In this document: piece after piece, positions 43,354 through 61,541 of the stretch
How positions within the stretch are numbered: the stretch's first letter is position 1
How the letters are laid out: every line of letters begins with the position of its first letter
Origin: an uncultured Chthonomonadaceae bacterium
Lineage (GTDB): Bacteria > Armatimonadota > Chthonomonadetes > Chthonomonadales > Chthonomonadaceae
Direction of reading: 5' to 3'
Assembly: GCA_963835065.1 (NCBI GenBank)
Contig: CAWIEK010000050.1
Span: 1 to 64,000 of the forward strand
DNA: 64,000 nt
Position numbers and translations under genes: made by a program
The notes under the pieces: generated by a model
Database searches by the model: none
Seen by the model: only the letters and a program-made list of their open reading frames with translations
What the model was told of the DNA's origin: nothing

Positions 43354-43914
43354 TCAGCAGCAACCCGACCCGCAGCATCCCGCGCCCGCGCTTCCTTGCG
43401 CCATCGGCAGCGTTGGCAGGCACACGTCTTTTGCCAGGCAGTCCGTATGCTTATAGCCGAGCGTGAGCGTTACCGCCTCCGCTGTGACCATGTAACCCGT
43501 AACCGGGTACTGCGAAATGGTCACATCTTCATATTCGATTTCAATGTCCAGGTCCCGGCCTTCCGGCAGAACTTTTGTCGCGATGTTCAGCACGTCGGCC
43601 ATTTTGCCCGCAAGCAGGCGGTGTTCGGTATCCGTCCATACCCAAGCCTGCAACTGGCAGGTATGCGTCGTATGGAGCCTGCCGCCGCAGTCAATGAACG
43701 TCTTCTGAATATAAGCGACTTCGGTAATGTGGAAGCAAACGGGAACTGCGTTCTTATTCGGAAGGACAAGGTGGAACGGCTTTTCGCGGTGCGCTTCGAG
43801 CAGACCCTTGAACGCGCTGAATTTCATAGTGCCGGTTTCTTCGTTCGCGTCATTTTCTTTCCTGTCGTTTGTCGGTGTGTTGCTTCTTGGTATGAGGGTG
43901 ATGGTTTCTGCCAT
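43354..43914 (-). CDS. DUF6428-like protein (in frame with the ArsM C-terminus)
   Basis: FHITEV, FIDCGG, QLQAW, IEIEY, TDCLAKDVC and a Cys-rich tail. Confidence 0.65.
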   Translation of the reverse strand: MAETITLIPRSNTPTNDRKENDANEETGTMKFSAFKGLLEAHREKPFHLVLPNKNAVPVCFHITEVAYIQKTFIDCGGRLHTTHTCQLQAWVWTDTEHRLLAGKMADVLNIATKVLPEGRDLDIEIEYEDVTISQYPVTGYMVTAEAVTLTLGYKHTDCLAKDVCLPTLPMAQGSAGAGCCGSGCC

Positions 43915-44845
43915 CGTTGTTCTCGCTTCTTTGTCAACTCCGAGAGTCGCTTCCGATTGGCAGCAGTCGGTTCCACAGCAGGGCGCGGGCTTTGTGGCGC
44001 GGATGAACGCGCCCATAACGCGCCCATCGAGCGCGGCCTTTTCTTCGGCAGGCAACGCCGCCACTTCGGGCGAGCAGCATGTTGTCGCTTCCAGATCGCC
44101 AAAGGTATAGCGGCGGGTCGGCTCAATCGAAGCCTCCGTAAAGCCGACGCGAGCAAGGCGGGCTAGGTAGTCACTCTTTTCAAGCGCGCCAGCGACACAG
44201 CCGACATACGCTTCCATGTCGGCGCGTACGGCAGGAGGGAAGTTCACCGTCTACAACCACATCCGAAACCGCGAACCTGCCGCCGGGTTTCAGGACGCGG
44301 AAGGCTTCGCGGATCACGGCGTCTTTGTCGGCGGAAAGGTTAATCACGCAGTTGGAAATGATAACATCCACGGAGTTATCGGGCAGGGGAATCTCCTCGA
44401 TATGCCCTTTCAAAAACCGGACATTTTCCGCGCCCGCTTTCGCCTTGTTCTTTTCGGCAAGCGCCAACATCTCGTCGGTCATGTCCAGCCCATAAGCAAA
44501 GCCTGTCGGCCCGACCCGCTTTGCCGACAGCAGCACATCAATACCGCCCCCGGAACCCAAATCAAGAACGATTTCACCGGGCTTGAGCGCCGCCAGAGCC
44601 GTCGGATTGCCGCAACCGAGCGAGGCCAGCAGGGCGGCTTCCGGGATACTTGCCGCTTCAACATCATCGTAAAGACCGCCCGTAATCGTGTCGCCATCGC
44701 AGCAGGAATCGCTTCCGCCGCCCGTGTTCCCGCCACAACACGCCGCGCCCTGACCGTTGAGAACGGTCAGCGCCGCCGCGCCGTACTTTTCGCGCACAAG
44801 GTTCCGCACATCGTTTCTATCCGTGAGCTTGATTGTTTCCGCCAT
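43915..44845 (-). CDS. arsM: Arsenite S-adenosylmethyltransferase, frameshift near 44245
   Basis: [35 protein letters not shown] and GCVAGAL. Confidence 0.9.
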
Positions 44846-48216: not shown

Positions 48217-49365
48217 ATGGGGCAGTTTCTGAAGGCGGCGGAGATTGGGGCGCAGGGGGCTATGACGCTGCCGGGGCGTTTCTACACGTCGCCGGAACTC
48301 TTTCAACAGGAGCAGGAAAGCATCTTTTTCCGGCAGTGGATTTGTGTGGGGCGGGAAGAGCGCATCCCACAGCCGGGCGACTACTTCGTTCGCACAATCG
48401 GGACGGAAAGCGTGATTATCGTTCGGGGGCGTGACGGAACTGTTCGCGCCTTCCACAACGTTTGCCGGCATCGGGGCGCGCAATTGTGCGAGGCTGGCGA
48501 AGGCCATTTCAAGAACGCCATTCGCTGCCCGTACCATGCGTGGGCGTACGGATTGGATGGCCGACTCCTTGCCGCGCCCTCAATGGAGGAAGTGATGGGC
48601 TTTGCGGCGGATGATTACCCGCTGCATCCCGTGTCCCTTGCCCGTTGGGAAGGGTTTCTCTTCATTTCGCTTGCCGCCGAACCGGAGCCGTTTGCCGTTG
48701 CGTATGCGCCCCTGCTGGACAAGTTTCGCCCGTACAACCTGCCCCTGTTGCGGATGGCGCGGCGAATTGATTACGATGTACGCGCCAACTGGAAATTGAT
48801 GTTTGAAAACTATTCGGAGTGCTTTCACTGCGCGCCCGTGCATCCCGCGCTGGTGAAACTCTCGCCTGCCGACAGCGGGGCCAACGATCTGGTGTCGGGC
48901 GCGTTTTTAGGCGGCTACATGGAAGTCAAGCCCGACAGTGGCAGCATGACCTTGAGCGGCAATTCTTGCAGCCTGCCCGTAGGCGACTTATGCGCCGAAG
49001 ACCATCATCGCGTCTACTACTATTCGCTGTTTCCAAACATGCTGCTCAGTCTGCATCCCGACTATGTGATGGTGCATACCCTCTGGCCGGAAGCGCCCGA
49101 CCGCACCCGTATTGAGTGCGAGTGGCTGTTCCACCCGGATGCCGCCACGCACCCCGGCTTCCATCCCGATGATGGCGTAGAATTCTGGGATCAGACGAAC
49201 CGCGAAGACTGGCACGTCTGCGAACTCAGTCAACTTGGCATCTCCTCCCGCGCCTACACGCCCGGCCCCTACTCCCCGCGCGAAAGCATTTCCGCCGCCT
49301 TCGACCGCGAGTACCTGCGCGTCCTCGGCTTGCCAACAAACCCTTGCAGCGGGACACAAGGCTAA
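48217..49365 (+). CDS. Rieske ring-hydroxylating oxygenase alpha subunit (GbcA/choline monooxygenase-like)
   Basis: NVCRHRG, CPYHAWAY, NWK..ENYSECFHCAPVH and EDWHVCE. Confidence 0.92.
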   Translation: MGQFLKAAEIGAQGAMTLPGRFYTSPELFQQEQESIFFRQWICVGREERIPQPGDYFVRTIGTESVIIVRGRDGTVRAFHNVCRHRGAQLCEAGEGHFKNAIRCPYHAWAYGLDGRLLAAPSMEEVMGFAADDYPLHPVSLARWEGFLFISLAAEPEPFAVAYAPLLDKFRPYNLPLLRMARRIDYDVRANWKLMFENYSECFHCAPVHPALVKLSPADSGANDLVSGAFLGGYMEVKPDSGSMTLSGNSCSLPVGDLCAEDHHRVYYYSLFPNMLLSLHPDYVMVHTLWPEAPDRTRIECEWLFHPDAATHPGFHPDDGVEFWDQTNREDWHVCELSQLGISSRAYTPGPYSPRESISAAFDREYLRVLGLPTNPCSGTQG

Positions 49366-49739
49366 GGAGGCGGGATGCGGCGCAGTGTGAACGTTGCTCC
49401 ATCCAAGACAGGCAACACCAATTCGTAACCGTACATCAGCGACATCCCCACCAGCGAATCGGCTTCCAGTTCGTCTATGCGGATAGTCATCGGCTGACCA
49501 TCCCATAAAACGACGCCCTTGTAGATATTGAACGTGGTTTCACTGCCGTCCGCGAGAATAGCTCGCCCAAACCTGTGCCAGCGTAAGCCGAGTATGGCAA
49601 TCACATCCGGCGGCAGCGTCAAAGTACCATTGTAGCCGGTATCTATAAGCGAGTTGTACGTATGTTCCTGACCATTCGCATCATGTAAGGTGAGGCTCAA
49701 AATAGCCTCGCGCCGTGCCGTAACAACCCCTGTCATCAT
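49362..49739 (-). CDS. Clan AA aspartic protease-like protein
   Basis: LIDTGYNG, LADGS and LVGMSLM. Confidence 0.8.
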   Translation of the reverse strand: MMTGVVTARREAILSLTLHDANGQEHTYNSLIDTGYNGTLTLPPDVIAILGLRWHRFGRAILADGSETTFNIYKGVVLWDGQPMTIRIDELEADSLVGMSLMYGYELVLPVLDGATFTLRRIPPP

Positions 49740-50011
49740 GCGCTTTGCTCGCTCCGTCCTGCGCCAAACCGACGCACATAGCGTGAGCCAACACGCAGCA
49801 CCATGATCTGCGCGTCAGGCAATCGCGCTTGCAGGCGGTCTGCGGCAATGTCTTCATCAGCATCTATTTCCCACGCGCCGGTATCCAAGTCAACGGCGAC
49901 AATCTCATCGTTGTGCGCCGGTTCCACCTGAGAGCGAATATCGCGGTCGTATATCTCCTCACCGCGCCGCCTAGCTTCCTCTTTACTGTAGCGTGGCTGA
50001 TGTACTATCAT
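49736..50011 (-). CDS. Small conserved hypothetical protein coupled to the aspartic protease
   Basis: RRGEEIY, IVAVDLDTG and LRVG, with an ATGA overlap. Confidence 0.7.
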   Translation of the reverse strand: MIVHQPRYSKEEARRRGEEIYDRDIRSQVEPAHNDEIVAVDLDTGAWEIDADEDIAADRLQARLPDAQIMVLRVGSRYVRRFGAGRSEQSA

Positions 50012-50023
50012 AAATATTCTCCT

Positions 50024-51313
50024 CTATGCCAATTGAGGTTTGCCATATATCTCCATCCGACCGCGCAAAGGACTGTCGTGGTCGAACGAGATGATGACGG
50101 AAAGACTGTGTTTGTCCAATGAGTGATCTATGCTATACATATCCATAAGTTCCGGCCAGCGTTCGGCTAGAAATAGTCCCGCCGCAAACGTACCCTGACC
50201 ATCATGTCCTCCGCACACAAAGTACGGTTTGCCCTTACCGTCGAGCGTCCGCACAATGAGAGCTTGGTCGTACTTGACACCCCTGTCTGGTATCGGCTTA
50301 GCAAAAAAGTCAATGCCGTTGACTTGGAAATTAGCCATCTTGGTTTCTTCGTCAGGCCATACGTCAAAGAAGCCCTCCGGGCACAATCCACGTGCTTTGT
50401 AGGCGGCACCGTTATGTAATCCTATGGCGATGATCCGCTGATTATCGCGTATATGCTCGTAACCATCCCGCTCAACCTGCATATGGATGCCCAGGTTGGC
50501 GCACAATCCGGCGATAGCACTCGCCGCCCGCAAGTCCCAAAATACGGCAGCTTGGTCGGGCCGTTCCTTCTTATCGGGCGTTGATAAGGGAGTAGGATGA
50601 TCATCTGTGTCGTGTATCCGAATGGTAAACGCAGGTGCGTATGTATCTTGAAACACGGCCACAATAGATGGAGCATCATTAAGACCGAAGAACTGGAGGA
50701 ACTTACTACGCATAATCTCCTTACCGGAAACTTCCGGGCTAATCATAGTTACTTCTGCCTTGTAATTTTCGTTGACCTGAGTAATAGTGTCAATTGATGG
50801 ACTTGCGTATATAGTTCGTTCGTACTTTCGACTGTTCAAGACGTAGGAGTGGTTTTTATACGGGGTGAAAAGGCTCTGAAGATGTTCATCCAGTTGTCCG
50901 TAAACTTCTTCTGTAACAGTTACTCGGTTTTCAAGACCGATAACTTTTTCCGATTTTAAGAAGTCATTTACGGCCTTTCCGTACAGATTTTTTAGATCCG
51001 GGTCCCATATAGCCTCTCCTTTATGGCAGGAAACGCGAATATGCAACGGCACTTTCAAAGTATTAAGTGTCTTCAGGGCATTGAAAAGACGCATAGATGC
51101 TTGGATATGAAGCGCGCCCGTAACCATATAGTCAAGTACCTCGTCTTGATCTATCAGAAAGAGATAGGCTCCCCCATCACCATCGAAGTCCAGTTCTTGG
51201 GCACCGTGCGAAGCAAGAATTTCACCAACCTGTCGTTGGAAGTTCTGCCGAGTTACGCTTATGTGCCGGTCAGCTCCTGGCAATAAGCTATGGCCTGCAA
51301 TATCAACTTGCAA
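50024..51313 (-). CDS. Class III nucleotidyl cyclase domain + unknown C-terminal domain (true start may lie further upstream)
   Basis: VDIAGHS and FDGDG acidic motifs, IRVSCHKGE, LYGKAVN. Visibly lower GC than the flanks. Confidence 0.65.
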   Translation of the reverse strand: MQVDIAGHSLLPGADRHISVTRQNFQRQVGEILASHGAQELDFDGDGGAYLFLIDQDEVLDYMVTGALHIQASMRLFNALKTLNTLKVPLHIRVSCHKGEAIWDPDLKNLYGKAVNDFLKSEKVIGLENRVTVTEEVYGQLDEHLQSLFTPYKNHSYVLNSRKYERTIYASPSIDTITQVNENYKAEVTMISPEVSGKEIMRSKFLQFFGLNDAPSIVAVFQDTYAPAFTIRIHDTDDHPTPLSTPDKKERPDQAAVFWDLRAASAIAGLCANLGIHMQVERDGYEHIRDNQRIIAIGLHNGAAYKARGLCPEGFFDVWPDEETKMANFQVNGIDFFAKPIPDRGVKYDQALIVRTLDGKGKPYFVCGGHDGQGTFAAGLFLAERWPELMDMYSIDHSLDKHSLSVIISFDHDSPLRGRMEIYGKPQLA

Positions 51314-51506: not shown

Positions 51507-51842
51507 TTACGCGACAGCAAAATCGGTGTACTGGCGCAAGTCTGCCGGATGGAACGCGAGTACGATGTTTTGTCTCGGAATGCCTTCCCGCATCAGCATA
51601 TCTGCAAGTCGCAGGTTGGTTCCGTCGCGCTGAATCCAAACCTTGTCTTCCAACACGTCTACATGCAGGTACATATCATCCACGCGGCGCTTGCCTTCCC
51701 ATCCTACCTGCCCTAATTGATAATGCCCGGTCGTTTCATCGCAAATAAGTTCGGTTCGCAGATCAGCTTCCGACGGCATCATTTCTCCAACCTCCTCAAA
51801 AACACGTCGGACAATCCTTTTAAATTCGCAGATTCGATCCAT
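51507..51842 (-). CDS. XisI-family protein
   Basis: HYQL..VGW, LHVDV..KVWIQRDGT, GIPRQNIVLAFHP and YTDFAVA. No XisH adjacent. Confidence 0.88.
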   Translation of the reverse strand: MDRICEFKRIVRRVFEEVGEMMPSEADLRTELICDETTGHYQLGQVGWEGKRRVDDMYLHVDVLEDKVWIQRDGTNLRLADMLMREGIPRQNIVLAFHPADLRQYTDFAVA

Positions 51843-51883
51843 TCCAATGCCTCTTTCTCCTGCGGGTCCTAATAGAGAAGATG

Positions 51884-52216
51884 TCACGATGCAGGTTGTG
51901 CGGCAATTTTGACAATCTGCCCCGGCGCAAGAGAAGGCAACACAGCCAATACCTGCGGCATTAGCGGAAGCAGAGTTTCGATGGTATTGTCTTGTGCCGT
52001 CAACACGATTAAGGCAAAGGAGCGCCCGCTCATATTCTGCTGATAGCGCATATTGCCATCAATGGTGAGAAACGCATCGAACTTGCCTGCTATCAGCGGC
52101 AACAGTTCGCCATTCTGAATACCGGCCCAGCCCATTTCCGGCACAGTCTTCACATCATGGCCGGACAGACCACCTTTGAGTTTGCGCGGCAGGCACTCGT
52201 CAAGCAACAGGTTCAT
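51884..52216 (-). CDS. DUF5615 PIN-like toxin
   Basis: LLLDECLP, MGWAGIQNGELL and FLTIDGNM.YQQN. Confidence 0.85.
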   Translation of the reverse strand: MNLLLDECLPRKLKGGLSGHDVKTVPEMGWAGIQNGELLPLIAGKFDAFLTIDGNMRYQQNMSGRSFALIVLTAQDNTIETLLPLMPQVLAVLPSLAPGQIVKIAAQPAS

Positions 52217-52436
52217 ACACCGCCTCGTTGTCAGGTTCCTGCAACCGTTGCTGAACAGCGTCTAAAACTTGCTGCGCGTGTCCGCGCGTGACCGTTGGGA
52301 AATCATCCAGAAAATCGTCCAGAGGATGATTCGCTTTCAAGTAGTCAAACAACGTCTTGACGGGAACGCGCGTACCTGTAAAGACGGCAATACCGCCCAG
52401 GATATTCTCGTTGCAGGTAATTATGTTTTCTGTCAT
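52200..52436 (-). CDS. DUF433 antitoxin
   Basis: ILGG.AVFTGTRVPV, FLDDFPTV, overlaps the PIN gene. Confidence 0.88.
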   Translation of the reverse strand: MTENIITCNENILGGIAVFTGTRVPVKTLFDYLKANHPLDDFLDDFPTVTRGHAQQVLDAVQQRLQEPDNEAVYEPVA

Positions 52437-52481
52437 TATCATTTTACTCCCATTCACCAAATACTCTCACTCTCACTCTCA

Positions 52482-53912
52482 CTACTTGTTCAGCCAGGCA
52501 TGACGCTGGCGTATCTTTTGCGCCTGTTCGGGGTTGACCATGTGGAGGAAGGACAGGTAGCCACCGGCGTACAGCAGGGCGTTCTTGCCGATACGCTCCG
52601 ACATGGTTTGCAGCCCTTCGGTTTCGCAGTGGTGCAAAAAGGCGCGGAACTTGCGCAGGTCGCGGCGGGACAGGCGCGGCGTTTCGTTCACCACCACGCC
52701 CGTCACCACCTGCCGATGCTGCGGGCGCATCACGCGGGTTTTGCCCTCATTGATAACATAGCCTTCTTCCGCAATGATGTGCCGCAAGCGGGTGAACAAC
52801 ATGCCGGTCGGGGCTTCCTTATCCGCATGGGAAAAGACAAGATCGTCGGCGTAGCGGGTATACGTGAAGCCGTAGCGTTTGGCGATCCCGGTTAGGCGCG
52901 AATCCAGACGGCGGCACAGGATGTTGGTAATCGCGGGGGATGTGCAGGCTCCCTGCGGCAATTGGCGCTCACCAATCGCAACGTGCCGTTTTTGCCCGTC
53001 CAATGTCAGGGCGACGCGGGGCGATTCGGTGCAAAGCAGGGCCAGAATGGACGCTACGCCCTCGTTGTACCCCAAATGCGTAAACAAGCCCTTCACGCGC
53101 CGAAACTGAATGGACGGAAAAAAGTCTTTCAAGTCCACGCGCACTACCAATTGCTTGCCCGTATGCCGCTGCGCGTTGTGCAGAATGGAACGTTTGGGAC
53201 GGAACGCCATCGCCGCGTCGTGGATGTTGACGCGGTTCAGGATGCTCGTCAGTACCCACGATTGCGCGGTTCGCAGTTGCTTTTTGGGCGCGGAAATCGC
53301 CCGCATCCCGCCGCTCCGCTTGGGAATGGAAAAATGCGCGTAGTGGTCAATCACGGTTGCGCCCCGGTGGTAGGTGAGCCACGCCAGTGTCTTTGTTTCT
53401 ATGCCCATCGCGTTCGCCAGTTCTTCCGCCGAACTCAGCGCAGGCAGGCTTGCGCCCTCTACTTTCGCCGCATCCCCGCCCTCATACCGCAGTCCCGCCG
53501 ACACGCCATGCCCGAGATACGGCAGCGTTCTCGCCCGCCATTCCTTCACCTGCTCCGAACGCGCGGCCTGTTCCGCTTCCTTTTGCTGCTTTTTGGCGAC
53601 CCGCGCCGCCCGAACCCGCTCGATCCGCTTTTTGCGGATGTCCTGTATCAGCGCGGGAATGTTACGGCCTAAATTGATCTCTTTATCCAACTGCTGCAAT
53701 TCCGCCCGCGCGGCCTGCAAGCCCGGATACAATTCTTTCAGTTTGGCTTCCGCATCCGCAATCTGCTGCGTCACTCCGGCCTGCGGCGGCCAGAATCCCA
53801 GCCGCTCCATCTCTTCTTTGATGAACGCTTCCTTGCCGATTTCGCGCATCCGGTCGCGCCAATTGGCCTGCGTCACGGGCTGGTTCGGGGTTACGGTGGT
53901 GTCGGTGGTCAT
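52482..53912 (-). CDS. Retron-type reverse transcriptase with long N-terminal helical extension
   Basis: IPKRSGGMRAISAP, NAQRH (NAxxH, region X), DLKDFFPSI, LPQGACTSP, YTRYADDLVFS and VTGVVVN (VTG, region Y). No maturase or endonuclease tail. Confidence 0.93.
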   Translation of the reverse strand: MTTDTTVTPNQPVTQANWRDRMREIGKEAFIKEEMERLGFWPPQAGVTQQIADAEAKLKELYPGLQAARAELQQLDKEINLGRNIPALIQDIRKKRIERVRAARVAKKQQKEAEQAARSEQVKEWRARTLPYLGHGVSAGLRYEGGDAAKVEGASLPALSSAEELANAMGIETKTLAWLTYHRGATVIDHYAHFSIPKRSGGMRAISAPKKQLRTAQSWVLTSILNRVNIHDAAMAFRPKRSILHNAQRHTGKQLVVRVDLKDFFPSIQFRRVKGLFTHLGYNEGVASILALLCTESPRVALTLDGQKRHVAIGERQLPQGACTSPAITNILCRRLDSRLTGIAKRYGFTYTRYADDLVFSHADKEAPTGMLFTRLRHIIAEEGYVINEGKTRVMRPQHRQVVTGVVVNETPRLSRRDLRKFRAFLHHCETEGLQTMSERIGKNALLYAGGYLSFLHMVNPEQAQKIRQRHAWLNK

Positions 53913-53924
53913 GGGAAATCCTTG

Positions 53925-54044
53925 AGTAGTCAGTAGTCAGTAGTCAGTAGTCAGTAGCTGTCCTACTCATTACCTTTGCCAACGCACAAGGTTTTGAGTA
54001 AGCAGGGATTTCTACTGACTACTGACTACTGACTACTGACTACT
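53925..54044. repeat. (AGTAGTC)n-core-(GACTACT)n hairpin element, copy A
   Basis: Inverted heptamer arms around a ~55-bp core. Supplies the stop codon of the SWIM gene. Confidence 0.85.
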
Positions 54045-56022
54045 TCTTCATCATCTCTTCAAACTGCCCTTCCGTTAAAACCGCCACGCCCAACTGCTGC
54101 GCTTTGGCGAGTTTGGAGCCGGCTTTGTCGCCGGCGACGAGATAGGTGGTGTTTTTGCTCACGCTGCCGGACGCGGTTCCGCCGTACTGCCGGACAAGGT
54201 CTTCGGCCTGTTCGCGGGTGAACAGGGTTAAGGCTCCGGTGAACACGAAGGTTTTGCCTGCGAACAGCGTGGGGTCAATGCCGCTGCCGGGTTTGGCGTC
54301 CTTGCTTGCCTGCTGCAAAGCGACTTGTTCGGACGCGAGGGCGGCAGCCGCGAGAATGTGGGCGCACGGCCCCTTGCGCAGTTTTTCGCGCTTGAAGAAC
54401 GAACACGAGCATTGCGCATACTGAACGCGCCCGTCCAGGTCAACGTCCAAAATCACGTCCTGCGTTTTGTTGCCCCGCGCATCGTCGCGTACTTCGGCCT
54501 GAACGCGCACCCGGTCTTCCCCGCCATTGGCGGGAGCGCCGAACGTCAGTTTGCTGTCGTCTACCGCATCCGCCCACTTCACGCCTTTCGCCGTTACAAT
54601 GCGCCTCGCCTGCGCCATGCGCTTGTCCTGATCGGTTTCCGGCAGTTTGATGGGAACCGGCAACAATGCCCGCCAGCGATACTGCCCCGTGATATGGTCA
54701 TACATCGCCTGCCCCTGCGCGCAGCACTGCTGCAAGGCGGAAGTTGCGGCATCGCGGGGTATGGACAGTTCCGAAGCAAGGGTTTCCGGCGTCAGGTGCA
54801 GTTTGTCGGACAGGGTTTTTAGGGCTTTTTCTACCACATCGGGCGGAGCCGTATTGGTGGACGCCAGCAAATCGAAACGCGCCGCCTGCGCCCAATCGTT
54901 TTTTGTCCAGCCGGACAAGCCCAGATCGAAACGCTGGTTTTTCTGAAATACGGTCCAGTAGGAAGGCAGGCCGCCGCCGAGCAAGCGCACCTGTACCCAA
55001 TCGGCGTGAGGCAGCAGCGACTCCATCACCAGCAAGCGCCGCCGTCCCCAAATGCGGATTTCGCCCTCATACTCGCCATTATAAACGTGTTCGTGTTCCT
55101 GAACCACGTCGTTCCACGGCTCCACGACAATGGACGGCTTTTGTCCCGGCTTCACGACAAACCGCAGCGAACGCGGCCCGACTTTTTCCCGCTTTCGGCG
55201 CAGAATGGCAAGCACATCGGCAACCGTCGCCGCGCTGAGTTTCAAATCCACCGTGCCGAACGCGGCTGCCGACTGCACCTGCAAAAAGCCGCGTACCCAC
55301 GTCGGCGGCAGGTCTATTTTCTTTTCTACCGACTCGCCCGCGCTGGTCGCAACGGTCACGCCCTCCGCGCCGATCTGCAAAAAGGCGGGGCGATAACTGC
55401 GAATACGCCGGATTTCATCGGCAAGCGGGCGGCTGTAATCAATGTTGGTCGTGCCGTACACGGCCTGCCCGAAAATGTCCAGACTTTCGGTGGGAACCGT
55501 GACGCGCCCGTAACTCAACTCGTCCTGCGAAAACACTTCAAAAATCAGGCAGTCGGGATGAACGCTGACAACCGGATCAAGCACCCACCACGCTTCGCGG
55601 TCATGCTCCAGCAGCCAGCCGAAATAACGGCGCTTGTGCTGATAGTACACGCCCCCGGACGCCAGATTTTCCAGATCCCGCACTTCTTTGTAACGCTTGT
55701 TGACGTCGGCCAGCGCTTCTTTACGCCGCTCCATCAGGGCGGGCAATGTGGCGGCGCGTTCCGTCAGTTCCGCGCCCAACTCTTCCAGATACCGCTGCTG
55801 TACCCACTCCTGATACGCGGTATGGTCTTTGGGCGCGTTGCGCAAGTCCGACGTGACGACCTCGTACAGGGCCAGCATCAGGCGCGCATACGCCAGACTG
55901 TCCTTAACCATCGCGTCCAGATGCACGGGCGGACGCGACTGCTCGGCGGACACATCCAGGTGCATCCCGTCCGAAGCCATATTCCCGCTGCTCGGGCGCG
56001 CATAATGTTGTGTTATTTCCAT
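54040..56022 (-). CDS. SWIM zinc-finger protein with C-terminal BRCT domain (retron accessory)
   Basis: AQCSCS...GPCAHILA (CxC...CxH). C-terminal [10 protein letters not shown]...[28 protein letters not shown] is a LigA-type BRCT. GGAG RBS before ATG 56022. Confidence 0.88.
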
Positions 56023-56033
56023 GTTGAACTCCA

Positions 56034-56153
56034 AGTAGTCAGTAGTCAGTAGTCAGTAGTCAGTAGAAATGCCGCACTGCTCAAAGTTTTGCGTAATTGC
56101 AGAAGTAATAAGTAGGACCGCTACTGACTACTGACTACTGACTACTGGCTACT
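56034..56153. repeat. (AGTAGTC)n-core-(GACTACT)n hairpin element, copy B (core inverted relative to A)
   Basis: Core matches the reverse complement of core A at 37/55 positions ungapped (manual count). Confidence 0.85.
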
Positions 56154-59100
56154 TCGACCCCTTCAATCTCCACCCCCGCCACCGCCAGCCTTGCCAGTTG
56201 GCCTAATGCCCATTCCGCGTCGCGGGACGAGCGGCCGCGCGCCAGTTCCAGCAGGAGGGGAATGTCCTGCGAGGTTTCCGCGTCCAGGCGGCGCTTGACC
56301 AGTTCTTTGGCTTTGCGGCCTTGATTGCGGGCGCGCAGTACCTGACGGTCGAAGGCGGGAGCCTGCGCGAATCGTTCCTCGGTTTGTGAGCAGGCGGGAC
56401 GCGAGAAACGCTTCCATTTGCGGGTCGGTGTTTTCCGACAGGCGGTTGAATATCGCCTCGTGGGAAACGGCTTCCCAACGCGCTTCCAGGTATTGCCGGC
56501 CATAAGCGCGAACCGGGGCTTTGGGGCTGTCGCACAGGGCGGTAATGAACTCAATGGCGTGTTCGTCGTTAGTCGGCACGGCCTCAAAGAACGTTTTGCC
56601 CATAGCCACAGCGGGCGGCAGTTCGGACTCCAGCAGGCGCAGGGCGAACGGCATCCTCATGCCCACTTGCGCAACGCGCTCCAGCCCCCAGGCGCGAATG
56701 TCGGGCAGCATATGCGTGGCGATTTGCAGCAGGGCGGGCGAGTCGGCGGTAAACAGCGCGTCATGCGCCTGTACCCATCGGCCTAAAATCGGGCCGTAAA
56801 CCGGGTTGGCGGTGTTCAGAAATTCGGGATCGTCAAGCGTCAGGAAGGTGGCGCTGACGATTTCATCTTCGAGCAGGCGGGAAGATGAGAACCGGGTTGT
56901 TTGCCGTACCTACCTGCTTCCATGCCAGTTGCCAGAACGCGGCGATTTGGCCCGCCTGTTCCAGGCCGTTGACAATGGTTTGCCGCAGTTCGGGCCACTG
57001 CGCGTCCGTTGCCGCTCCCACCAGTCCAAGTATGGAGGCGACGGGCAGAACCCGCACAATGTTTTGCAGTGCGGATTGCGGCAATAGCCTGACCAGAAAC
57101 GGGCGCGTTTCCAGCAAGCCTTGCAGCCGGGTTCCATCCAGCGACAGGCGATTAAACAGGGCAATGGCAGCCGGGGAACCGGTTGCCGAGCGCAGGGCGT
57201 CCGTTTCCGTTGTGGCGGCAAGCAGTTCGTCCCAGACAGGAATTAAGTTGCTGTCGGGCGTCATACTGGCGGCAATCAAGTCCCATCCGGTGCGCCGTAT
57301 CCATTCGGAAGGGGCATTGACCAGTTCCTTCATTTTGGCTGTTGGAATCGGTTTGGAGCGGATACTTTCCGTCAGGGCGCCCAGGGCTTGCGTCCGCAAA
57401 TCATCCGGCAAGTTTTCAAGATTTTGCAGCCACACGTCCAGTTGCGCAATTGACGCCTGCCGCAGCGTGTCCAATCCCCATTGCAGCAATTCCGGCCTGC
57501 GCGTGGCATATAACTGCACGGCAAGCGCGGGAGATACCTGCTTACTCAGCACGGTGGGGAACTGCGCGACAAGGTATGCGAAAGCAATCCCCTGTCGGCG
57601 CGTCAGTTTGCCGTCTTGAGCGTTGTCGCTTGCCAGTTTGTACAGGCGGTACGCGAAAGGATTGATCCATTGGCTGCTCAGATTGGCTTGCCGCGCAATA
57701 TAATCTTTTATGGTCTGGCGCGTTCGGCCACTGCCCTTGAAAAAAACTTCCGCCGCTATATCTGCGGCTACGGTTTCCCCGTTGGCGAGTTTGGAAGCGA
57801 GGGCGCGGGATGCAAGCGTTGCCAGCAGGGGCGAGGGCGACTGCAAAAAGAACAACAGTCCGACATCCGGCACGTTGGGCAAAGGCCGCTTCATGCCGCG
57901 CAGCATTTTGCAGGCCGCTTCATGGGTTTGCCAGGGCAGTTCGGGCGTGACAACGAGGCTTTCCACCTGCTGCGGATAGCGATCCCAAAATTCGGGATGG
58001 CGCTCTTCGCGGGTGCGCAGGCTCAGATGCCTGCCGCGCAGCAGGTACGCGCCCCGTCCGTGCGATGCCTGTTCGTAGCGGCGGGAGTTGCCGTACAGAA
58101 TGTCCATCGAAACCCATTGTACGCGGGTGTCGAGTTCCTGCCGATCCTTGCCCGTTGTCAGCAACATTTGCGTTGCCTGCTGAACATACTGCGCGGGGTC
58201 TTGTTCGGCCAGGCTGCGCAGGGCGCGGCGGACGCGGCGTTTCATGTAGCCGAAGGTTTTGTTGGACGGCAACGCGCCGAGCAGATAGGGACGCTCCGGC
58301 TGGCGAACATCCAGGATTTGCAGGGACGAGGCGTGATGAGGCCGGGTTTGCAGGTCAAAAAAGACATGGTTCGGGTCATCGGCGGAAGCGGCTATCGGCC
58401 CGACAATGCCGCCGATAAACGCGCCCATAAGCCGGGGCTGTGTGGGAACGGCAATGTCAACAACTTTCAGGCCGCTTTGCTTGACATTGTTATAGCCCGG
58501 CCCTTCAAAACTGACGAAGGCGTGATTTTTGCCAAGCGCAAGCGATTTGGCGCTTTCAAATTCCAGCATGGTGGCGGGTGTGAGGGGGATTCCATGTGCA
58601 TCCAGCCGATACACGTTCAGCCCCAATTTTTCCGCAGCCGTCTCATAATAGCTGGCGCGTCCCACAGTGACAAACAGGTGATTATCCTGAATTCTAATGT
58701 CGGTGGCTCCCGGCACATCCAGTGAGTTCGCCTGACGCGGCTGAAAGGGGTTGGACAGATCGTAAGTGACGATTTTCTGGCGGTTGTTGTAGCGTTCGCC
58801 GGACAGAACGTAAATCTTTTGCCCCAAAACGGCAAAATCGATAGGCGCGTCCACTTTGGTCTTGCTGACCGTTACAACAGCAGTGAGGATTGGAAACGTT
58901 CAGAATTGTCAGAAAACACTCGCGGTAGTAGTTGCTGATGACTGCCACACTCATGCCCAGGCGGGCAATACGAACCGGATATTTCAACTCACTGGAAGCA
59001 ATGCTTTGAGGATGGGCCGGATTGGACACGTCCACGATATGCAGCATTCCTGTCTGCCGATTGTAATACCCGCTTTCAAGGACGTAGGCCGTTTTGCCAT

Positions 59101-59599
59101 TCTCCACTATCAAATCTTGTGGATTAGGAATGTTGAGGTAGCCCAAAGGCCGGGGCTGCGCAGGATCGGAAATGTCCAGAATATGCAGGCCGGGGCGATT
59201 GCCTCTGGTCAGCAGATACGCGAGGCTGCCGGATACGAACACCCGCGCAGTGTTGTTGATACCCGCCGACGTGAGGGGCGTCGGCAGCATTTCCGGCGTT
59301 TCGGGCAAGGGCTGAACGTCCAGCCGACACGCAAGCGGCTGCAAAATATCCCAATCCTGCAACGTTTCCGCCGCCTTGTACAAGCGCTTCACCTGCGCCC
59401 AATAGCCATACGCAAACGGCGCGGTCTGCGCCACCTGTTTCCATTCGGCGCGGTTTGCCTCCGTAATGGCAATCGGCGCGGGTGGGGCGCTTGTAGCCGT
59501 TGGCATATCAGCGGCAGTCGGAGCGGCAGCGCCCCCACCGAACAAACGTTTGAACAGGGACGCAATCGCCCCCAATCCTGATGGTTCATCCTGAGCCAT
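56135..59599 (-). CDS. Large (~1150 aa) LVIVD-repeat propeller + HEAT/ARM-like protein (retron accessory), three frameshifts
   Basis: Pieces 58694..59599, 56863..58854, 56163..~56885 and 56135..~56385. Repeats such as LHILDISDPAQP, LHIVDVSNPAHP, LKVVDIAVPTQP and LQILDVRQPERP precede a long Leu-rich helical region. Confidence 0.75.
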
Positions 59600-59624
59600 A
59601 ATGGTTTCTTTCAGGTTTAACAAA

Positions 59625-59691
59625 GAACCCCTGCTTGAGCGGTTCCCCTTCTCCCAGGCTTTTTTGGGAGAAGGGGTCAGGGGTTGAGGGC
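59625..59691. repeat. REP-like hairpin between the ncRNA array and the first CDS
   Basis: ccccttctccca-ggcttttt-tgggagaagggg stem. Confidence 0.6.
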
Positions 59692-59704
59692 ACGTTGGTA
59701 CAAC

Positions 59705-59926
59705 CGCGAACACAGCCACTAATCACGTAAAGAACCGGCGGCAATCACTGTAGGCCGGGGATTAAATGCAAATTTTCATGTCTCGCATGAACCTGTTACC
59801 ACAGCGTCAAAAACATGAAATTTGTATTTTATCCCCGGCTGAGTAGAATTGCTGCCCGGTGATGGATGGCAGGCGAACCAACAGCCATGGCGAAGCGCCA
59901 CAGGCTCAATGCTGGCAATGTTCGCG
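59705..59926 (-). ncRNA. Retron msr-msd unit 1
   Basis: a1/a2: cgcgaacacagcca (59705-18) with tggcaatgttcgcg (59913-26). Candidate branching G at 59912. msd inner stem 59754-59781 / 59813-59839. Confidence 0.8.
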
Positions 59927-59970
59927 CAAACGACGGCAATACCAAACCACTGCAAACAAGCGAGATGAAA

Positions 59971-60196
59971 GCGGAAAGTCTCTGCCACTGATCTTGTAAG
60001 CAACCGGCGGCGATCACTGTAGGCGTCCGGGGACCCTGCCTTTACTCGCTAGCGTGATTTTATATCTCTCAGCGCCGAATCGAGTAAAGGCAGGGTCCCC
60101 CGGACGCTGAGTAGAATCGCTGTCCGGTGACGGATGACGGGCAATACAGCAGCCACGGCGAAACGCCGCAGACGGAATGCTGACAGAAAACTCCGC
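59971..60196 (-). ncRNA. Retron msr-msd unit 2
   Basis: a1/a2 59971-87 with 60181-96 (G-U pairs on the minus strand). Candidate branching G at 60180. Inner stem 60023-48 / 60081-107. Confidence 0.8.
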
Positions 60197-60205
60197 GGAG
60201 AATTC

Positions 60206-60281
60206 AGGACAAAAGGCAAAAGGAGAAAGGAAAAAGTAACATGGCCGATCACTTTCTCCTTTTTCCTTTCTCCTTTCTCCT
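60206..60281. repeat. Purine/pyrimidine heptamer hairpin (AAAGGAG-like) between ncRNA units 2 and 3
   Basis: aggacaaaaggcaaaaggagaaaggaaaaagt ... actttctcctttttcctttctcctttctcct. Confidence 0.75.
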
Positions 60282-60532
60282 GTAACTGCATGTGCCGAAA
60301 AAGCTACTAATCCTGTTGGGAACCGGCGGCGATCACTGTAGGCGGCAGGGTGCTAGTTGTCGCCGGGACGAGCATGGGCGCGTCTTCTCAGCGTCGAAGT
60401 TGCGGCGACAACTAGCACCCTGCCGCTGAGTAGAATCGCTGTCCGGTGTTGGATGGCAGGCGATACAGCAGCCATGGCGAAACGCCACAGACGGAATGCT
60501 AACCTGTTTCGGCTCTGGTGTTCAGTTACAGG
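60279..60532 (-). ncRNA. Retron msr-msd unit 3
   Basis: a1/a2: cctgtaactg..gccgaaa with tttcggc..cagttacagg. Candidate branching G at 60499 in UUAGC context. Perfect 24-bp inner stem 60342-65 / 60403-26. Confidence 0.82.
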
Positions 60533-60710
60533 GCTTTCACTGTCGGACGATGCGCCGAACCGGAAAGCCGTTCTTGGAAATACGTTGGTTGGTCTGGAAA
60601 ATTCCTGCGAACGCGCTTTTTGTTGCTTGAAAACGGCGTCACCCTCACGGCTGCGCATTGATTGGGCGCAGAAGGTTTTCCTGCCGACTTGTAGCGCTGG
60701 GGCAAAGGAA

Positions 60711-61541
60711 TTACGGCTGCGCGCCGTGTTGGATTAGAAAGGGGATGAGCCGCGTATTGTTCTGTTCGCGGGCAATCGTCAGGGCGGTTTTGTGGTACTT
60801 GTTGCGTTGGTTGATGTCGGCGTGGTACTGAAGCAGCAGAGCGGCAATGTCTACCACGTCGCCATCCGGGGAGGTGGCAAGGTTCATCAGGGGCGTGTAG
60901 CCATAGTTGTCCCAGACGTTGGGATTGGCGCGGGCTTGCAGCAGCAATCGCGTTGCGGCAAGTTGATGCCCGTAAATGGCGTGGTGCAGGGGCGTCGCGC
61001 CCGAAGTGTCTCGAATGTTGATGTGCGGATGGCGCAGCAGCAAAGCCGCGATTATTTTCGGGTCGCCGCGTTTCGCCGCCAGCATCAGCAGAGTGGTATG
61101 CTGATCCGATTCAGGATCGTCCTCCACATCCACGTCGGCCCCATGCCGCAGCAGCGCCTCGAAGACCGGCCAGCACTCATATGATGCCGCCCTCGCAATA
61201 ACGGGAGGTCCACCATGCCTGTGATACATGCTGAACGTCTCCTGTAAGGTGGAGCGAAAATACCAGGGACGGAATATGTCCCGGCTGAACCAGCGGCCCA
61301 AAACACCGGTTGAGGAACTTTGCTCATAAGCATAGAGGCGTACATTCGGGTCCGCGCCCTGCTGAAGCAAACTTTCCACCTCGACGGCGTGTTCTGATTC
61401 TGCCGCTTTCAGCAGGGCGATGTTGAGCGTTTTGCGATGCGCGGCGTGGCAGACCCAAAGGGCAAACACGCCGCAAACCAGCAGCCCGCTCACGAAATAA
61501 CGCCGGAGCAGGCGAAGGAGACGGAGAAAGCGATTTTTCAC
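60711..61541 (-). CDS. Ankyrin-repeat protein with N-terminal TM
   Basis: LLQQGADPN, GATPLHHA, GYTPLMNL and TALTIA. Confidence 0.88.
   Translation of the reverse strand: MKNRFLRLLRLLRRYFVSGLLVCGVFALWVCHAAHRKTLNIALLKAAESEHAVEVESLLQQGADPNVRLYAYEQSSSTGVLGRWFSRDIFRPWYFRSTLQETFSMYHRHGGPPVIARAASYECWPVFEALLRHGADVDVEDDPESDQHTTLLMLAAKRGDPKIIAALLLRHPHINIRDTSGATPLHHAIYGHQLAATRLLLQARANPNVWDNYGYTPLMNLATSPDGDVVDIAALLLQYHADINQRNKYHKTALTIAREQNNTRLIPFLIQHGAQP

Follow-up and report, generated by a model that had tools for sequence, protein, structure and literature searches.

A type XIII retron with three msr-msd templates and a predicted clamp-fold accessory protein in an uncultured Chthonomonadaceae bacterium

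Organisation of the locus

The minus-strand stretch 52482-60513 of a 64,000-nucleotide (nt) sequence from an uncultured Chthonomonadaceae bacterium (the whole sequence being referred to here as the window) carries a member of retron type XIII. In order of transcription it comprises three non-coding RNA (ncRNA) units of the msr-msd kind, a large accessory gene, a gene encoding a SWIM-domain protein and a gene encoding the retron reverse transcriptase (RT). The features are as follows.

60294..60513, minus strand: msr-msd ncRNA unit 1 (model match 60306-60504)
59971..60196, minus strand: msr-msd ncRNA unit 2 (model match 59987-60185)
59705..59926, minus strand: msr-msd ncRNA unit 3 (model match 59718-59917)
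56135..59599, minus strand: type XIII large accessory gene (LVIVD beta-propeller and HEAT/ARM), with three frameshifts
56034..56153, no strand: second (CTACTGA)n hairpin, a host repeat
54040..56022, minus strand: type XIII SWIM protein gene, 660 amino acids (aa); Pfam SWIM and BRCT, PADLOC SWIM_XIII
53925..54044, no strand: (CTACTGA)n inverted-repeat hairpin, a host repeat
52482..53912, minus strand: retron RT gene, 476 aa, with a long N-terminal extension; Pfam RVT_1, PADLOC RT_XIII

An earlier sequence-only reading of this DNA had described the parts as co-oriented, the ncRNAs as lying about 5.8 kb upstream of the RT and a heptamer hairpin as all that sits immediately before the RT. All three statements hold, the end of the nearest unit being about 5.8 kb from the RT start at 53912 and the hairpin being the sole element separating the SWIM gene from the RT. 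The LVIVD, SWIM and BRCT domains that it named are borne out by Pfam, and the HEAT/ARM repeats by PADLOC. A promoter scan of 59550-60760 found no sigma-70 consensus promoter, so that co-transcription of the locus is argued from spacing only.

Assignment to retron type XIII

Type XIII was defined by Mestre et al. in 2020 (PMC7736814) as comprising a clade 10 RT, a winged helix (wH)-SWIM protein with a DEDE motif, and HEAT/ARM proteins. The RT in the window scores 540.7 bits against PADLOC RT_XIII, compared with 313.9 bits for the next model, and all three proteins score best as type XIII (SWIM_XIII, E 7e-169; WGR/HEAT-ARM_XIII for the pieces of the large gene, and E 4e-35 for whole homologues of the large protein). 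The RT contains the motifs NAxxH (as NAQRH) at 246, YADD at 354 and VTG at 403, of which the first two are found in all 56 related RTs and the third in 51 of the 56. On the strength of these matches we assign the system to this known but mechanistically unsolved type, in agreement with the Mx162-like retron proposed earlier. The clade 10 RT, the DEDE motif, the winged helix, the SWIM signature CxCx12CxH and the upstream HEAT/ARM gene are all present. The ncRNA is not contiguous with the RT gene, which we treat as a variant of layout within type XIII and not as grounds for exclusion.

In a quick tree, which did not include the Mx162 RT, the RT groups as sister to one from a Chthonomonadaceae (Armatimonadota) record, and its clade is set apart from six other retron-like RTs with a support of 92. 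Its placement among retron RTs stands, as does the expectation that the accessory genes would be conserved beside homologous RTs. The sequence-only reading had also called the locus a variant without an obvious catalytic effector. This description is half right. No toxin domain is recognised, and in the literature consulted no effector has been demonstrated for any type XIII system; the locus nevertheless keeps both standard accessory genes, including the acidic DEDE motif, and lacks nothing that other type XIII members have.

The system resembles the described type XIII retrons (Mxa1/Mx162, Mxa2/Mx65, Sau1/Sa163 and Nex2/Ne144; PMC7736814) in its N-terminally extended RT, in its cluster-114 wH-SWIM protein with the DEDE motif and in its HEAT/ARM protein, and it shares with Mx162 and Sa163 the TAGC/CAGC context of the priming G (PMC6868368). 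It differs from them in possessing three distinct ncRNA units, in placing these at the head of the operon instead of adjoining the RT, in the BRCT domain added to the SWIM protein, and in a HEAT protein that contains a beta-propeller and in which no WGR domain was detected; moreover, the core of the cluster-114 protein is predicted here to adopt a PCNA fold and not a transposase-derived one.

Distribution and gene order in relatives

RT matches were found in 58 of 401 genomes sampled from the phylum, and in 5 of 31 from the family. Removal of the host's own genome and of five partial matches lacking the N-terminal extension left a set of 52 RT-bearing genomes. The SWIM gene precedes the RT on the same strand in all 56 loci that hold both, and the large gene precedes the SWIM gene in most of them, being absent from the contig in two (L107 and L109). 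The ncRNA model matches 42 of the 52 RT-bearing genomes and none of 20 RT-free genomes from the same family. Among 38 loci with an ncRNA match, the ncRNA lies 5.0-8.3 kb upstream in 37 and adjoins the RT in one (L014); among 80 metagenome loci it lies just downstream of the SWIM gene in seven, with the RT next in the five checked. A distant ncRNA is thus the norm for the whole clade.

A divergent subclade (L134, L137, L138 and L139) lacks the BRCT domain and has longer stems of 46-49 bp, and two genomes carry both this subclade and the other. Two Saprospiraceae loci (L004:7681-9973 and L007:8919-9872) contain WGR-PARP (PARP, E 4e-25) and WGR genes between the SWIM gene and the RT; it is possible that these represent either a catalytic output or passengers.

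Three msr-msd units

The ncRNA units are three similar repeats (repeat families D1/D4), confirmed by matches to the ncRNA model. Each possesses an a1/a2 repeat, directly followed by a G in the context TAGC or CAGC, msr hairpins and a long msd stem, and the folding of every unit surpasses that of all 200 shuffles (z = -7.6, -7.3 and -5.2 for units 1, 2 and 3). For unit 1 the priming G is predicted at 60499 (TAGC) and the multicopy single-stranded DNA (msDNA) at 142 nt, templated by approximately 60307-60448; the corresponding predictions are 60180 (CAGC) and 142 nt for unit 2, and 59912 (CAGC) and 143 nt, with an AT-rich stem, for unit 3, the end points of the msDNAs being inferred from motif positions. 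The double-stranded stems are predicted to span 22-28 bp. Identity between the three units is 80-89% in the msr and 84-87% in the 3' base, but only 12-29% in the stem arms.

In an alignment of nine units, both bases have changed in 24 of the 26 stem pairs, a score reached by none of 500 shuffles, although the structure was derived from the same nine units and the slide control is inflated as a result. Judging from these paired changes, the stem structure is evidently kept by selection. Stem length is near-constant across relatives (median 29 bp, interquartile range 26-32, for 63 of 76 units; the other 13 could not be anchored, and four Bacteroidota units are mis-anchored). No further units were found elsewhere in the host genome with the ncRNA model, and no Rfam family matched the units at its cut-off, below which there were chance matches to hairpins of the miRNA type.

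Several other features of the stems were noted. The motif TAG[TG]G occurs in 16 of 51 stem arms of related units (7.6 expected), often in mid-stem, while GATC and CCWGG occur in none of the 51 (1.7 and 3.7 expected). The hairpin tip CGCTGAG is kept in nearly every unit (as CGCTGTG in unit 3) and is complementary to CTCAGC at the stem base, which possibly reflects an alternative pairing or a protein site. Three further ideas were rejected or set aside. The stems are not copies of host DNA, as their 20-mers match only their own arms in the genome; an enrichment of palindromes, tested twice, was significant against base shuffles but not against dinucleotide shuffles, and was not adopted; and none of 53 loci found in viral contigs by a loose motif was upheld by the ncRNA model.

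Several units occur in 11 of the 42 genomes with ncRNA matches, in tandem in eight and dispersed in three, and further arrays of two or three units are found at L001, L004, L007, L215, L219 and L223. Multi-unit loci are located on several separate branches of the quick RT tree, and units have therefore been gained or lost repeatedly, with the reservation that kin are not independent. Boxes resembling the -10 element (TATACT, TATAAT) were seen by eye before some internal units (L215:4460-4990, L219:4120-5000 and L223:4185-4760), which suggests separate promoters for units of an array. Units are also found off the operon (L288, L313 and L298, in G366:C198, G040:C65 and G256), where the surrounding 1.5 kb or so contains no large gene, and these are possibly trans-acting templates.

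The extra units might be near-neutral duplicates or a dosage device, in which the stem needs pairing and length while its sequence is uninformative. The prevalence of loci with one unit is consistent with such a view, as is the free, compensated variation of the stems, which share no strong common motif and no arm of which matches elsewhere in the genome; in addition, msr-msd copies without an RT are known from Nannocystis (PMC6868368). However, every unit retains the priming, msr and base motifs across genomes, and stems within an array diverge far more than the msr does. Stem type is also kept by positional counterparts: the stem arm of unit 1 is 96% identical to its counterpart at L001, where coding DNA is 77-86% identical, and unit 2 and its L091 counterpart share 96% of the msr and 67% of the arm. 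We consider neutral or dosage-related duplication to be quite unlikely.

The SWIM protein and its predicted clamp fold

A structural model of the SWIM protein, built with 130 sequences (predicted local distance difference test (pLDDT) 90.7, predicted template modelling score 0.81), contains a two-domain PCNA-type clamp fold at residues 34-374, interrupted by a helical insertion at about 58-148, followed by a winged helix at about 393-451, a SWIM finger (C538, C540, C553 and H555) and a LigA/RFC1-type BRCT domain at 584-657. PCNA was the first Foldseek match of the model, and it also ranked top in an unbiased comparison with 48,161 chains, ahead of 9-1-1 (Z 14.3) and beta clamps (Z 12.6); the superposition on human PCNA (Z 16.2, root-mean-square deviation 2.8 A over 220 residues) spans the whole PCNA subunit. 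In a mean-field covariation analysis of 382 sequences (effective number 191), strand pairings typical of clamps were recovered, among them S170-F365 and V174-Q363, which connect the two domains. Averaged over the 130 sequences, the four helices of the clamp are basic overall, with R327 and R329 conserved in at least 95%. By secondary-structure order, the best-conserved motifs (FSxDE at 164-168, P353 and GLSGW at 368-372) would fall on what we take to be the partner-binding face of PCNA. The core of the protein is thus predicted to be a clamp fold of the PCNA type. A feature-based Atlas search added nothing beyond SWIM-labelled clusters.

The likeness to sliding clamps is one of fold and of basic helices: sequence identity is only about 9-11%, and the SWIM protein differs from them in its long helical insertion and its fused wH, SWIM and BRCT modules. 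The best match of the BRCT domain is the RFC1 BRCT-double-stranded DNA model (Z 12.2, 35% identity), that is, the DNA-binding BRCT of RFC1. This domain shares 62% identity with a further BRCT encoded by the host genome, and it is missing from Bacteroidota loci and one Armatimonadota subclade. The winged helix (window 54670-54846) is closest to Z-alpha domains (Z 10.4). Alternating purine-pyrimidine runs of at least 8 occur in 14 of 51 stem arms (4.5 expected from base shuffles and 8.1 from dinucleotide shuffles) in a post hoc test; nine of the 14 arms come from one family, and the stems in the window are without such runs.

According to the published proposal the DEDE motif of the cluster-114 protein is thought to be transposase-derived and nuclease-like (PMC7736814), so that the SWIM protein would be a toxic effector restrained by the RT and msDNA. 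The motif Dx7Dx4Ex32Dx37E is indeed present (D149, D157, E162, D195 and E233), with 85-100% conservation in the 130 sequences. In the model, however, these acids are located in strands and loops of what is predicted to be the first clamp domain, the best matches are clamps and not enzymes of the RNase H fold, and no transposase or nuclease fold is found among the structure matches listed. A DEDE nuclease effector is therefore improbable.

A clamp fold together with very stable stems would also fit accessory proteins that serve as biogenesis factors, with a processivity clamp helping the RT through the hairpin, and UG27 offers a precedent, its complementary DNA (cDNA) being made only when all three proteins are present (bioRxiv 10.64898/2026.09.22.753630). 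We regard this as highly improbable here, given that clade 10 RTs produce abundant RT-DNA without accessory genes, the RT and ncRNA alone being among the highest producers in Escherichia coli (census preprint). It follows that the accessory proteins probably act on the msDNA after its synthesis.

The large accessory gene

Relatives encode an intact large protein of 1154 aa (for example L001), of which the L001 model (pLDDT 89) consists of a short helical start, a beta-propeller at about 120-435 and an alpha-solenoid of HEAT/ARM repeats. A fold search returned only generic propeller-solenoid matches (template modelling scores 0.1-0.2), and a domain search found no WGR domain in the protein. Compared with the intact L001 gene, the gene in the window contains three single-base insertions, near 58886, 56882 and 56390, which break it into four frames.

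The large gene may be truly pseudogenised and the system inactive in this strain, irrespective of mechanism. The three insertions fall within 3.46 kb, which is dense beside the roughly ten breaks in 50 kb found elsewhere in the assembly (one of them probably an insertion sequence remnant), and the gene of another close relative (P0283/P0282) is broken as well, at a different place. Against decay, contigs from independent runs do not contain the extra bases at the three sites, and a near-identical strain (P0284; RT 99.4% and SWIM protein 98% identical) has the protein in full (1154 aa). Frame splits also affect seven of 50 other orthologues in the same assembly, some of the breaks being clustered, and the RT, SWIM gene and ncRNAs are intact. 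From these comparisons the three insertions are probably assembly errors, and an inactive system is unlikely. A gene at 43354-44845 of the window, which from its sequence motifs we take to be arsenite methyltransferase-like, is apparently split over two frames in the manner of the other frameshifts of this assembly.

Genomic neighbourhood and host repeats

The genes around related loci are housekeeping genes and their order is non-syntenic. Our scan of the flanks covered 95 of 144 candidate open reading frames (ORFs), the 49 left out including some that overlap the system. Downstream of the RT in the window (51507-52460 and 49362-51313) are a DUF433/DUF5615-PIN pair, XisI and an unannotated low-GC ORF of 429 aa, none of which is among the flanking genes identified at related loci.

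Such surroundings might indicate a domesticated, non-defence role, in which a complex of msDNA, clamp and HEAT protein takes part in the handling of host DNA damage or replication stress, for example by titrating DNA-end-binding proteins or signalling through them. Besides the housekeeping flanks, the RT tree largely mirrors host families, type XIII correlates with host 16S (PMC7736814), the clamp fold near PCNA and 9-1-1 and the RFC1-type BRCT recall the sensing of DNA breaks, and WGR and WGR-PARP genes lie inside the Saprospiraceae loci. A preprint by Millman et al. further reports two retron clades rarely found near defence genes, which the accessible text does not name. Patchy presence in phylum and family and non-syntenic flanks argue against such a role, and the repeated gain and loss of units with divergent stems fits conflict-driven evolution better than a core function. 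On balance we find a role in DNA stress unlikely, but deserving of serious consideration.

The heptamer hairpins do not belong to the retron. There are 63 (CTACTGA)n hairpins across the host genome, where they form an intergenic repeat, and two of them flank the SWIM gene. In relatives the gap between the SWIM gene and the RT contains other repeats or none; its median is -4 nt, and it is at most 30 nt in 40 of 56 loci, a few start calls being uncertain. The hairpin was therefore rejected as a retron ncRNA or a part of the system, as a genome-wide repeat that is replaced or absent in relatives. The host genome is generally rich in tandem heptamer arrays (AACAGGG 192, AACTATC 174, AATGCCT 149, AAGGATG 99 and ACTACTG 88), and arrays of the CTACTGA type frequently form inverted pairs within intergenic spacers.

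Proposed working of the system

In retrons of known mechanism the RT and msDNA restrain an effector until phage disturbs the DNA (census preprint). We tentatively propose, as somewhat short of an even chance, that in this type XIII retron with three templates the msDNAs form a set of baits held by the SWIM protein, with its predicted clamp fold, and that disturbance of the baits elicits a protective response. Each of the three templates would likely be copied by the RT, giving hairpin msDNAs of about 142 nt, whose 22-28-bp double-stranded stems the SWIM protein may bind; we infer a complex of the RT, the large protein and the clamp protein, perhaps with ring formation or threading of the DNA. 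A clamp-like holder on a DNA bait is suggested because the clamp fold, basic helices and DNA-binding modules suit a product whose stem is always paired and of constant length. Stems of unrelated sequence would broaden the range of what is detected, and the units differ precisely where a bait would, being alike in the msr and in stem length and divergent in the stem arms. The trigger may be phage or stress proteins that bind or process DNA and so disturb the baits, which would likely set off the protective response.

A number of observations weigh against this proposal. Domain and structure searches recognised no toxic domain in either accessory protein, and no report of defence or toxicity for type XIII was found in the literature searched. 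The flanks are not defence islands: 4 of the 95 flanking proteins match PADLOC, in a comparison without a control set, and all four are housekeeping-like, resembling ArsM, an ABC transporter, a dGTPase and PcrA. A single unit is present in 31 of the 42 genomes, and frameshifts interrupt the large gene as assembled here. Palindromic 4-mers in the stems number 121, against 99.8 in base shuffles and 114.8 in dinucleotide shuffles. As regards a ring, covariation at the expected interface does not rise above background (the best ranks being 355 for edge strands and 85 for helices), the operon encodes no AAA+ clamp loader, and clamp folds also occur in proteins that do not form rings, such as UL44, which was among the structure matches. 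The host genome has an ordinary dnaN of its own. Because of the missing toxin domain and loader, the background-level covariation at the ring interface and the housekeeping neighbours, both a DNA-stress role and neutral duplication stay in contention. A bolder form of the bait proposal, in which type XIII, the family to which the first retron discovered belongs, is a PCNA-like clamp ring loaded on self-made DNA, with an expandable natural library of baits of equal length watched by the ring, its BRCT and the propeller-solenoid as a multi-input tripwire that no retron of solved mechanism resembles, is doubtful.

Relationship to other systems and significance

In array logic the system is closest to UG27 (bioRxiv 10.64898/2026.09.22.753630), yet it is not a member of that group. 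Both combine one RT and two accessory proteins with a variable ncRNA array, whose members are conserved in structure, diverse in sequence and templates for short DNA hairpins. UG27, however, has a class 2 UG RT with bORF and sORF, is mostly phage-borne and depends on all its proteins for cDNA, whereas in the window the RT is of the retron kind, a1/a2 repeats and a priming G are present, the locus sits in the chromosome amid housekeeping genes, and the accessory proteins are those of type XIII. Several msr-msd copies in one genome are also known for Nannocystis Retron-Nex1/Ne160 (PMC6868368); those are scattered duplicates with no nearby RT, in contrast to the intact tandem units at the operon head described here, which are kept across genomes.

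Neither a clamp fold in type XIII nor natural tandem arrays of msr-msd units preceding a retron operon came up in full-text literature searches, outside which most subscription papers lie; these included term look-ups in the accessible text of PMC8632793 and of the census, Millman and Buffington preprints. A 2026 survey (PMC13712802) lists 143 type XIII candidates as an expansion of a known type, and the words "array" and "tandem" are not used in the part of it available.

What Mx162-type retrons do has been an open question since 1984, and the predicted clamp fold provides a testable model of their constant partner in place of the published guess of a transposase. Screens that search for the ncRNA no more than 500 bp from the RT (census preprint) would miss the whole clade, whose members occur in 52 of 400 sampled Armatimonadota-level relatives. 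Finally, natural multi-template retrons imply that one RT may serve several msDNAs, as in engineered retron arrays.

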